Sequence record: CP128686.1
DNA: 64,000 bases
Strand: one strand, 5' to 3'
DNA from: a plasmid
In this document: positions 18,001 through 21,000 of the stretch, piece after piece
Layout of the letters: each line of letters begins with the position of its first letter
Position numbering within the stretch: the stretch's first letter is position 1
Position numbers: made by a program

Positions 18001-21000
18001 CCGGCATACCTCTATCACCTCCAGCGTGTCACTGGACGCGATCGGCAAACAGTTTAAAGCGTTCATGGAGACCCTGCCGGAGCCAACGGCGGACATGTTG
18101 CAAAAAGGGCGTGAACTTCAGGCCCGGGAAGAAGCCCGCCGTCTGCAGCACCGGGTTCCCGGTTTCACTAGCATCTGACCGGCGGGTAGCACGATGGAAA
18201 ATCAGGAGCACCTGACGCTGATCCACTCGCTGATCAAAACCCACGCCTTCAACGGTTATACCCTAGTCAGCACGAAGTACTGGCAGACGCCCTCGGTCAG
18301 TGACATTTCCGTGGTCCGGGGGCTGATCCCCCTGACTGACCTGGAGCTGGCCCACCGGCTGGCGGTGGACCCACGAACTATCCGCAAATGGAAATCCGGT
18401 CAGACACAGATGGTGTTCACCACCTGGTGCTGTCTGTGCTGGCTGGCCGGGCTGGGCATGCCGCTGGATAACGAAATCAGCGACTGAAGACGCGACGGTA
18501 GATACGGCGGAAAATATACCGGCGGTAATATCGCCAGCTGCATGTCCAGATATAGGGAAGCTCGTCAAAGTGGGTTAAGAACCAGGTGAGGCTCCGGTAC
18601 GCTACGACAACGGCCCAGATGAACTTACCGATGGCGATGAGGGTGAGGATGACAGTAAATACTGCTGCGATAAATGTAGACATAGTGTTCTCCTTTATGT
18701 CCGGGTTGATGTGCAGGTATTTACTGTTGACGAGTGGACTTAAAGGCCGCTTTTCCGCAAAAAGTGAAAATAAATTCGTTTTTCGCCTTTTATTGCCGTT
18801 ATGTATTGAATAAGACAGAACCTTTGTTGATTACGCATTAATGCCGTTTTTGCAATAATTTTTCACTTTATTTCTTATTTTGTTCGCAATGTCTCTGTTT
18901 CGTTCCTCAGATCCGAAAAAAGGTAGTTCCGGATCTCAGTAAAATCGTATGAATTTTGAGTTGTCTCCACTCCTTCCCTTTTTCAAAATGTTATCTATAA
19001 CTGGCTGAGGAACTTCACTGCTGCGGAGGCTAATTTGGGCGTAAAAATTACAGGTATAGATAAATTGCAGAAACAATTGAAAGAAGTTGAGGAAGCGGCT
19101 GAAACCCTTAACGGTAGTTATCCGGTAAGTTTTGATGCAAACGATCCTGTCAGCATTGAAACTGCGATTCAGGAAGCGTACAGCATGTTGGAGGAGCGAG
19201 CCTCACGGTATGCCGCTAATCCGATGATTAGTCCCATGATCGAGGCCATGAAAGAGGATTTGCGTCAGCAAATTCTGGATAGTGCCGAACAGCAAAGACA
19301 GGAGAACGGGCAGGATGGCAATTGACATTTTTCAGTCACTCAAAAATTGTGTGTATGATTTGCAGCGTGCTGATGCACAGAACTATCAGCAACCACTGAA
19401 ACAACTGGCCCGGCTCCTGAACGACGGTAATCTACAGGCTGTTAACGAACGCCTGACATGTGATGTCGATCTTGACGCCTTTCTGGCGAAAAGTCATGAA
19501 ACCGAATCCAGTATGGCCGGCTCCGCCATCCTGCAGTGGCCTGAAGAACCGCGTGAAATTTTAGGCCTGAAGCTTTTGTTAATCAGGAAAATGTCCGTTA
19601 ACGATAATTTCGCATTCAATTTTTGCCACACGTTTTTCTATGACCGAAAAATTATTGAATCTGTCCGTAAGTTCACATCCTCGTTACTGGTAACTTTTGT
19701 TCGCGACTACCAGCTGTATGTTGAGAATGAATCCGATCCTGATCCGGTAGTAATACGTCAGGTCTCGCGCAAAATTTTTATTGTTCACGGCCATGATAAT
19801 GATGCCCTTCAGTCTGTTGCCCGCTTTATATCCCGGATAGGGCTGGAGGAAATCATTCTCTCTGAACGTCCTGATGGCTCAAGGACTGTAATCGAGAAAT
19901 TTGAAGCGGAGTCAGGAGATGTCAGCTTTGCCATAGTGCTGATGACACCCGACGACAGTGGAAATGCCCTGGCATCTGAAAACACACGACTGCGTGCACG
20001 CCAGAATGTCCTGTATGAACTGGGATATTTCGCGGGTAAGCTTGGGCGCGGGAAAGTGCTGGTACTAAGGAAGGGAGATATCGAAATACCTTCCGATCTC
20101 GCGGGCGTACTCTATACCGAGCTTGATGAGCATGGTGGATGGAAACGCAAGCTGCTGAGTGAGCTGACGTATGCCGGTGTTCCTTTTGACAAGGAAAAAG
20201 CGTTAAGCGCCTGATCCACTTATTGAGTAATAAAAAGGCCGCCAGGCGGCCTTTTTATCAGATCAGTCGTCATTTCCCAGTGCACTTTTGAGTTCTTCCT
20301 GCTCCGGCGTCAGCTCGTTGCCGGACAGCATAACCTTCAGCTTCTCTTCGACTGCTGACCAGTCATCAAAGAACGGACTGACCTGGTCACGCGCAATCCG
20401 GCGATATGCCCCTCTGTGAGAGCTGAAGACACTGGTCTGTAATCGTATCAACAGGTTAACGAGGCCTTCATCAGTGGCAGTTACTTCTCTGACCCATTGC
20501 TTCACGGCTTCATCTGAACTCATGTCTCTCCAGGCGTAGAGATACCCGAGAATTGACTGGCGCAGGAGAAGTTGTTGCTTAAGTTCTGGCTGACTCATGC
20601 GTTCAGCAAATCTGTCACGCAACCGTTCCGTAATATCGCGACTGAAAAGAGCGTCTGAAGGGGAAGGTACTGCATTTTGAGCAAGACCGTGTTCCCAGAT
20701 AAGATCCCGCATAAAATCGGCTATCCAGAACGGCGAAGCGCCAGTAACAATCAGCTTTTCCATCTGCGTGACTGTTCTGGTCTCATCAATATTCTGCATA
20801 TGCTTCAGCAGATGCCGTACAACCTGATTAATGCCAGTTTCACGCAGGGAAAACCATGTGTTACGGATCCGGAAGCGAGTGCTGACCTCATCCGTGTGAT
20901 CGAAGAAAAACTGAATCAACCCAGCACACTCTTCGAAATTACGTTCCTTAATCAGCCCCGGTGTCAGCCTGCTTAGTATATGTTCGAACCAGGTTCCGGA

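Follow-up and report, generated by a model that had tools for sequence, protein, structure and literature searches.

The stretch of plasmid DNA analysed here (CP128686.1; 64,000 nucleotides, hereafter the window), part of a pLVPK-like Klebsiella virulence plasmid, carries two overlapping genes, yuaX and a gene for a protein of 299 amino acids (aa) that has a TIR domain at its C-terminus. We read this pair, with a probability of roughly 55%, as a compact and mobile defence module of the abortive-infection type, in which the TIR domain would act as an NADase effector and YuaX, together with the N-terminal domain of the TIR protein (N-domain), would form the sensor. A broader reading is advanced more tentatively, and we would not give it even odds: YuaX and the N-domain could constitute a new and widespread two-piece sensor, reading the infection cue via protein-protein contacts and combined in evolution with four or more killing domains that are unrelated to each other (TIRs of two families, the HEPN-type Ymh/DUF4145 domains and a Gly-rich membrane-type tail), i.e. 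an undescribed modular abortive-infection family with a member on F and on hypervirulent Klebsiella plasmids. The parts of the pair are located in the window as follows.

18684..19024, + strand: intergenic region 5′ of yuaX, AT-rich, presumed promoter region
19025..19029, + strand: Shine-Dalgarno sequence GGAGG, 5 nucleotides (nt) before the TTG start of yuaX, as read from the sequence
19035..19325, + strand: yuaX, 96 aa, TTG start, YuaX family (PF27363), proposed sensor/regulatory subunit
19315..19325, + strand: overlap of 11 nt between the end of yuaX, stop included, and the start of the TIR-protein gene at its ATG
19315..20214, + strand: TIR-protein gene, 299 aa from ATG, with a helical N-domain, a short linker and a PF10137 TIR domain
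19315..19758, + strand: N-terminal all-helical domain, aa 1-148, seven helices, proposed sensor or YuaX-docking domain
19498..19548, + strand: most conserved N-domain motif, S-M-x-G-S-x-x-L-x-W-P, aa 62-78, candidate binding site
19771..20127, + strand: TIR domain of the Cap12/Pycsar type, aa 153-271, PF10137
20017..20019, + strand: GAA codon of Glu235, predicted catalytic glutamate in the motif RARQNVLYELGYF
20230..20258, no strand assigned: bidirectional intrinsic terminator hairpin between the TIR-protein gene and the convergent pifA

Both open reading frames (ORFs) lie where an initial annotation of the window, made from the sequence alone, had placed them (19035-19325 for 96 aa and 19315-20214 for 299 aa), and the RefSeq coding sequences on identical plasmids have the same ends, the larger product being called ‘TIR domain-containing protein’. 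The small protein had been described as acidic and as preceded by a good ribosome-binding site; its computed pI is 4.33 and its net charge -9.5, and GGAGG stands 5 nt before a TTG start, which is replaced by ATG in the orthologue on the F plasmid. The overlap was also correctly called: the TGA stop of yuaX (19323-19325) lies inside the TIR-protein gene, beyond its ATG at 19315, an arrangement from which translational coupling of the two genes is likely. Upstream, the GC content falls to 0.379 in 18684..19024, compared to 0.497 over the whole window, and a sigma-70 consensus scan found no promoter in this region; similarity to the F plasmid begins only at about 19024, so that the region 5′ of yuaX is not conserved between the two plasmids. 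At the other end, the claim of a strong bidirectional terminator agrees with a hairpin of 13 bp (20230-20258), preceded by an A-run and followed by a U-run, which fills the gap of 48 nt between the TIR-protein gene and the stop of the convergent pifA; its folding energy is -18.7 kcal/mol (z = -4.16, none of 200 shuffled sequences being as stable). A simple terminator scan overlooked this hairpin.

The TIR-like C-terminal domain proposed in the initial annotation was recovered by profile search: PF10137, the family of Cap12 and Pycsar effector TIRs, matches residues 153-271 with 126.7 bits and an E-value of 6e-37, for a gathering cut-off of 24.7, and the match spans positions 1-118 of the 119 of the model. 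The homologue alignment of the TIR protein, from which a profile was also built, comprises 43 sequences. In 43/43 of them Glu235 is unchanged, together with the RARQNV-x-x-ELG motif around it, and the FIVHGH and TPDD motifs are invariant as well. In the Cap12/TIR-STING chains 9lmq and 7un8, the residue aligned with Glu235 is the Glu of NVVFEFG, which we take to be the catalytic residue of TIR-STING. When the 43-homologue profile was run against the PDB, the sole solved sequence relatives were Cap12/TIR-STING (9lmq, 7un8) and PycTIR (8jsj). The Foldseek comparison, proposed at the outset as a check, was carried out on an AlphaFold2 model of the 299-aa protein (mean pLDDT 82.4); TIR-STING was ranked first and SPARTA TIR-APAZ next. 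TIRs of the PF10137 clade are described as potent NADases that oligomerize and are toxic if unregulated (bioRxiv 10.64898/2026.04.30.722052), and we therefore infer that the present domain is an NAD+-depleting effector. At full length, the family of the TIR protein amounts to 3,061 proteins at E <= 0.001, and full-length relatives of about 50% identity are found in Pseudomonas, Methylobacterium, Burkholderia and Halomonas.

The N-terminal domain could not be placed in any family by the initial annotation, which gave it a length of about 160 aa. The first point holds, no model of Pfam, NCBIfam or PADLOC covering residues 1-100, and the length has to be corrected to about 148 aa. Modelled alone, aa 1-148 fold into a confident seven-helix bundle (pLDDT 88.7, pTM 0.82). 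The residues G69, S70, L73, W75 and P76 are invariant in the homologue alignment, and in the model aa 62-78 form a non-helical loop (pLDDT about 88-96, with neither helix nor strand assigned), a candidate binding site. A profile homology search returned only fragments and close relatives, and comparison with known folds gave no similarity to STING, SAVED, CARF or cNMP-binding domains. Membership of the HEPN superfamily was considered and rejected: the domain lacks the catalytic Rx4-6H motif and conserves F-x-R-D-Y instead, and the partner YuaX is not a nucleotidyltransferase. A relationship to viral proteins was likewise dropped, a BFVD search having produced no match at E < 0.7.

These features of the N-domain bear on one alternative, according to which the TIR protein would be an orphan signal-activated effector, its N-domain binding a small molecule produced elsewhere (a nucleotide messenger, or a metabolite of host or phage), in the manner of the STING, SAVED and cNMP-binding domains of Cap12 and PycTIR, and YuaX being an accessory. 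The conserved Gly/Ser-rich loop GSMxGSxxLxWP could indeed form a ligand pocket, the TIR clade is that of the signal-activated Cap12 and PycTIR, and one preprint (10.1101/2025.06.19.660554) reports that a signal from the host acts on a stand-alone TIR-SAVED effector. However, there is no conserved cyclase or signal-producing gene beside the pair, an all-helical bundle is unlike the STING, SAVED, CARF and cNMP-binding folds, and the tight linkage with a protein, YuaX, points to a protein-protein mechanism. We therefore regard this explanation as unlikely.

As for YuaX itself, the precomputed PF27363 annotation is found on 55/55 of its homologues, and the name given by RefSeq to the identical 96-aa protein (WP_004213078.1) is ‘YuaX family protein’. 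Profile scans brought up no DNA-binding domain, and other Pfam, NCBIfam and PHROG families gave only scattered, non-recurring matches, all with E > 0.003 (DHOase-like, DUF3801, tail-completion and tape-measure PHROGs). The notion that YuaX mimics a phage head-tail protein is unsupported, the PHROG matches being weak and non-recurring. Kinship with ThcA of Thoeris type III was also rejected: a lone NCBIfam match (E 0.015; 15 bits against a cut-off of 110) recurs in 1/32 homologues and is put down to chance. This match and the two-gene layout of a TIR operon are what would favour a Thoeris-like signalling system, in which YuaX, as the effector, would respond to a signalling nucleotide produced by the TIR. 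We hold this to be very improbable, because not only is the match to ThcA a chance one, but YuaX, with its 96 aa, has no enzymatic or membrane domain, it also occurs with non-TIR effectors and as an N-terminal fusion with the TIR protein, and PF10137 is a Pfam family named for the effector TIRs of Cap12 and Pycsar. According to a survey by the Sorek laboratory, TIRs in CBASS and Pycsar contexts are NAD+-depleting effectors and not signal producers (10.64898/2025.12.03.692087).

Conservation of the gene pair in other genomes, a point raised by the initial annotation, was found in a locus scan with one genome per species, which yielded 80 loci, 38 with the N-domain and 42 with the same TIR type behind another N-terminus. 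A YuaX ORF lies directly upstream and on the same strand in 38/38 of the former (E 1e-19 to 1e-57) and in 0/42 of the latter. In 35/35 unfused loci, as in the window and on F, the stop of YuaX overlaps the downstream start by 1-17 nt, with junctions of the forms ATGA, TGATG and similar, and in 3/38 (L035, L038 and L040, from diverged alphaproteobacterial genomes) YuaX, the N-domain and the TIR are fused in frame in one ORF of 414-415 aa. The pair was found in Alpha-, Beta- and Gammaproteobacteria, in one Gemmatimonadetes metagenome-assembled genome and in one from Saccharibacteria; since both genes are conserved together across these groups, the pair is more than a chance association. The reverse scan, seeded with YuaX in metagenomes and IMG/VR, revealed an N-domain gene downstream in 28/34 loci; among the exceptions are one orphan lineage, one copy disrupted by an insertion sequence (IS) and two doubtful or divergent matches. 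The two components also diverge to the same extent and faster than the TIR, mean pairwise identity being 49% for YuaX, 49% for the N-domain and 65.5% for the TIR domain; the distances between YuaX proteins correlate with those between N-domains at rho 0.64 and with those between TIR domains at rho 0.49, values for which p-values are not meaningful, the sequences being related.

A few loci depart from this scheme. The orphan lineage (metagenome contigs L108, L110 and L113) has a 92-aa YuaX at about 4001-4279 without an N-domain gene; a helix-turn-helix (HTH)/ImmA-type pair adjoins it, and its neighbours resemble small proteins of what we take to be the DUF2188 and DUF3892 types. YuaX can thus occur with other partners. 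In two loci a second PF10137-type gene, with another N-terminus, directly follows the pair (L016, 6244-7660; L101, 3759-4580). In Azospirillum sp. A26 (L045, 4983-5880), the N-domain and the TIR are in two overlapping frames and the effector gene looks frameshifted; it is likely to be a pseudogene or to reflect a sequencing error.

The N-domain is not confined to PF10137-type TIRs. A phmmer search with it against 1.84 billion representatives (50% identity) gave 194 matches, the best 150 of which were classified: 42 carry a PF10137-type TIR, 24 have YuaX fused at the N-terminus, 12 have in common a C-terminus, about 130 aa long, with a hydrophobic segment rich in Gly/Ala at its end, and 28 have other C-termini. 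Pfam recognizes TIR_2 in P0209, P0211, P0266 and P0307, followed in some by an HTH, Hypoth_Ymh in P0217 (E 5e-33, with an RNPKAH motif of the RxxxxH form), DUF4145 in P0185 and, by a weak match only, an alpha/beta-hydrolase in P0317; the Ymh and DUF4145 C-termini are presumably HEPN-related. The loci of eight non-PF10137 variants were looked up and, one contig being too short to judge, a separate YuaX gene overlapping the start of the variant was found in 5/7, namely P0211 (TIR_2), P0185 (DUF4145), P0206, P0216 and P0228. YuaX therefore accompanies the N-domain whatever the effector. This rules out an inhibitor specific to the TIR and speaks for a common module that senses or regulates. When P0194, P0216 and P0209 were used in tblastn against plasmids and phages, the PF10137 type alone was found, and no other effector variant. 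The Gly/Ala-rich module was also met outside this context, in a 203-aa hypothetical protein of the Citrobacter freundii IncA plasmid pCf-VIM (L122, 4728-5339), which is 49% identical to P0194 over residues 158-265 of the latter; since its N-terminus is unrelated, the module is an independent mobile domain.

It is at this point that the main rival reading, itself rather unlikely, has to be weighed: a type II toxin-antitoxin or plasmid-addiction pair, in which a labile YuaX antitoxin would neutralize a stable TIR toxin, and plasmid loss would kill the cell, thereby stabilizing F and pLVPK. The layout fits, with a small acidic gene product encoded upstream and overlapping a larger gene with an enzymatic domain of toxic type; the pair resides in the maintenance regions of large low-copy plasmids, near ccdAB on F and near vapBC in the window; and in several Klebsiella plasmids IS5 hits the TIR-protein gene and spares yuaX. 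But YuaX has no detectable DNA-binding domain, and it follows the N-domain and not the toxic domain, preceding TIR_2, DUF4145, Ymh and Gly-rich effectors; a protein found before several effector types cannot be a specific inhibitor of one active site. Moreover, the in-frame fusions seen in many lineages are a poor fit for an antitoxin that is degraded faster than its toxin, unless the fusion is cleaved, and most loci are chromosomal, among defence genes. The initial annotation had left the choice between a sensor/effector and a toxin/regulator pair; because YuaX tracks the N-domain and not the TIR, joins these other effectors and is fused in many lineages, the former is favoured over a toxin-antitoxin.

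If the pair is a defence module of this kind, its working could be pictured as follows. YuaX, made at about 1:1 with the TIR protein through coupled translation, would dock on the N-domain and, in the uninfected cell, the two would keep the TIR monomeric or inactive while serving as sensor. A cue of infection (most probably a protein of the phage, or a change that the phage brings about) would act on the YuaX:N-domain complex and release or assemble the TIR domains, which would become active on oligomerization. NAD+ would then be hydrolysed and depleted, and the infected cell would stop supporting phage growth.

The 1.4-kb region of the pair is 100% identical in pLVPK (NC_005249), pK2044 (NC_006625) and hundreds more K. 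pneumoniae virulence plasmids. In PLSDB, 583 plasmids match at >=99% identity and 905 give any match; the module is present on 578 Klebsiella plasmids, and in hypervirulent K. pneumoniae most virulence plasmids of the pLVPK type carry it. A pair about 80% identical is carried by some 235 E. coli replicons, nearly all of them plasmids, and among them by the classical F factor (the F′ of NEB Turbo and XL1-Blue), where it is convergent to pifA-pifC and lies between RepFIB and ccdAB; among complete E. coli genomes, 264/5,426 have it. In the window it is flanked by vapBC, a DUF3800 gene and PifA/PifC. Most pair loci elsewhere are chromosomal and situated among defence genes. In the 38 genome loci, the 146 proteins encoded by the two ORFs closest to the pair on either side, tallied per family and without a background control, include GajA/OLD-type ATPases, TPR-S, WYL and integrases in three loci each, BrxA, SLATT, TIR_2, CapP and IrrE peptidases in two loci each, and single cases of STALD and a DNA methylase; an OLD-type TOPRIM is also among them. 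Further copies are found in a Pseudomonas prophage-like region, beside SLATT_5, on an IMG/VR contig and on Rep3 plasmid-like contigs. These neighbourhoods fit a lifestyle of defence islands and mobile elements.

One may nevertheless ask whether the role is an immune one at all. The pair could serve housekeeping, NAD-linked regulation or the control of conjugation or plasmid competition, or it could be a neutral passenger. To our knowledge F has no pif-independent phage phenotype, and laboratory strains in common use tolerate the pair on their F′; for the neighbouring PifA, the BASEL authors suggest that immunity may not be the primary function (PMC8594841). Against a non-immune role stand the patchy distribution across phyla, which looks like that of horizontally transferred genes, on plasmids, in prophage-like regions and in islands near Gabija, BREX, SLATT and CapP, the fast divergence of the sensor part while the catalytic motif is conserved, and the swapping of effectors, which is typical of conflict systems. 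Taken together, such a role seems to us quite unlikely.

Several observations weigh against the defence reading that we prefer. YuaX is missing upstream of two TIR_2 variants (P0209 and P0266), and is therefore not obligatory for every N-domain protein. No N-domain match was found in 50,697 deposited phage genomes (INPHARED), and the neighbour tallies above are per-family counts without control. A literature search for PDC-S35, yuaX, yuaY/pifB, PF27363 or the pair found nothing, as did searches combining pifA, TIR and F plasmid, virulence plasmid and TIR, or DefensePredictor and TIR as far as this pair is concerned. Despite decades of study of F+ E. coli, the phage exclusion known to us for F maps to pif, and routine laboratory strains carrying F′ tolerate the pair. 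Finally, the host used to isolate and titre the BASEL phages was E. coli with F(pifA::zeoR) (PMC8594841), which presumably keeps the pair, unless the construct affected adjacent genes; the BASEL data would therefore be blind to it, and phages sensitive to it would be missed.

Variation at the locus itself and next to it gives some additional indications. In several Klebsiella virulence plasmids (L087, i.e. K. pneumoniae pKpVP, and H21-H25) IS5 is inserted in the 5′ part of the TIR-protein gene, about 90 nt past the yuaX stop, at about 19415 in window terms; yuaX is intact, the annotation shows a TIR ORF of 284 aa that lacks the original N-terminus, and these copies are natural effector knock-outs. 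In E. coli MG1655 with pKp2449-vir-tra or pVir_249kb (L124/L001), a G-to-A change at the equivalent of window position 19954 causes D214N in the TPDD motif. Other transconjugant plasmids (J53-p130 and J53-KPC_Vir) encode the wild-type TIR protein, and their only differences are within the hairpin of the terminator (20244, 20234). Selection against the TIR-protein gene in E. coli transconjugants was for this reason rejected, D214N representing a single lineage and the other 99.9%-identical copies changing only the terminator.

On the pifA side (20263-22488, - strand) the window has a premature TAA stop at codon 287 (21628-21630): base 21628 is T, while in an otherwise near-identical plasmid it is A, the codon being TAT (Tyr) and the 741-aa KAP NTPase intact. 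Judging from this stop, PifA is probably inactive on this plasmid, while the neighbouring yuaX-TIR pair is intact. The gene pifA is followed at 22490-23392 (- strand) by a pifC remnant, for which the RefSeq annotation of an identical stretch reads ‘transcriptional repressor PifC, incomplete, missing N-terminus’; the F plasmid has a full pifC of 1,089 nt. On the other side, 17045-18683 contains the DUF3800 gene (377 aa, PF12686 E 3e-6), then a 97-aa ORF with weak HTH-like matches and, on the opposite strand, a 68-aa ORF. PADLOC gave no match for any ORF of 17045-18683 and, because they are absent from the F copy of the region, these genes are considered to be outside the yuaX-TIR module. The vapBC type II toxin-antitoxin pair (15767-16437, - strand; VapC 147 aa, VapB 76 aa) is situated about 2.6 kb upstream, and beyond it the annotation of an identical plasmid shows fragments of a restriction endonuclease and of a transposase.

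Pending a phenotype, the pair is one of many computational candidates. If our interpretation is true, the F plasmid carries a second, unrecognized immune gene pair beside pifA, and this pair is present in many strains used for cloning and phage display (XL1-Blue, NEB Turbo F′) and presumably in the BASEL host; it could thereby skew the range of phages able to grow on ‘male’ strains. Its presence on hypervirulent K. pneumoniae plasmids would then matter for phage therapy and for plasmid fitness. More generally, YuaX and the N-domain would be a sensing module with exchangeable effectors, and the pair would offer a clean system for studying how a small sensor, split or fused, controls the assembly of a TIR NADase without a nucleotide second messenger.

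How does the pair compare with systems already known? The initial annotation considered it as not described as a system, which stands for the pair and its mechanism only: the TIR part falls into PDC-S35 of PADLOC and YuaX into PF27363, so that the pair is half-catalogued already, yet uncharacterized as a pair. Five PDC-S35 models match the TIR protein, with E-values from 7e-66 to 4e-42 and covering residues 102-298, the best being PDLC05005 (E 7.3e-66, residues 123-295); the TIR domain and the preceding linker are thus of PDC-S35 type. PDC-S35 is a single-gene computational candidate, of which we know no validation, and both the N-domain (aa 1-100) and YuaX lie outside it.

The closest characterized relatives are Cap12 (TIR-STING, CBASS) and PycTIR (Pycsar), whose TIRs belong to the same clade by Pfam, by PDB sequence and by fold and have the same Glu-containing motif. 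The logic may be shared as well, a sensor fused to an NAD+-degrading TIR that presumably oligomerizes. Unlike them, the pair has no CD-NTase or PycC cyclase in or near its operon, and neither a cyclase nor another signal-producing gene was found next to it in the window or in the related loci; its sensor is all-helical and not of the STING, SAVED or cNMP-binding type, and it has a small protein partner, YuaX, that looks obligate. Assignment to CBASS was rejected, as the NCBIfam equivalog of Cap12 scores 42.6 bits for a cut-off of 450 and matches the TIR part only, the PADLOC CBASS effector models reach the TIR core only, and a cyclase is lacking. Assignment to Pycsar fails in the same way: the PADLOC PycTIR model matches residues 189-271 only (E 1e-9) and no cyclase is a neighbour. 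Nor does the pair belong to Thoeris, its TIR being of the effector clade PF10137 and not ThsB_TIR, and its partner a 96-aa protein without an effector domain.

Its neighbour PifA, the KAP NTPase abortive-infection gene of F, is convergent to the pair and has a common terminator with it on F and on pLVPK-type plasmids, where the two form a small defence-type cluster. They differ in belonging to unrelated protein families and to separate transcription units, and in most other genomes the pair is found without pifA. In its logic, the pair may rather recall CapRel(SJ46), whose regulatory domain serves to inhibit the toxin and also to sense a protein of the phage. This is an analogy only: the domains are unrelated, and the activity would be that of an NADase rather than tRNA pyrophosphorylation. 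In both cases, a fast-evolving regulatory module would hold a toxic domain off and recognize the phage, and in the pair this module would be either fused or provided by a separate, translationally coupled polypeptide.

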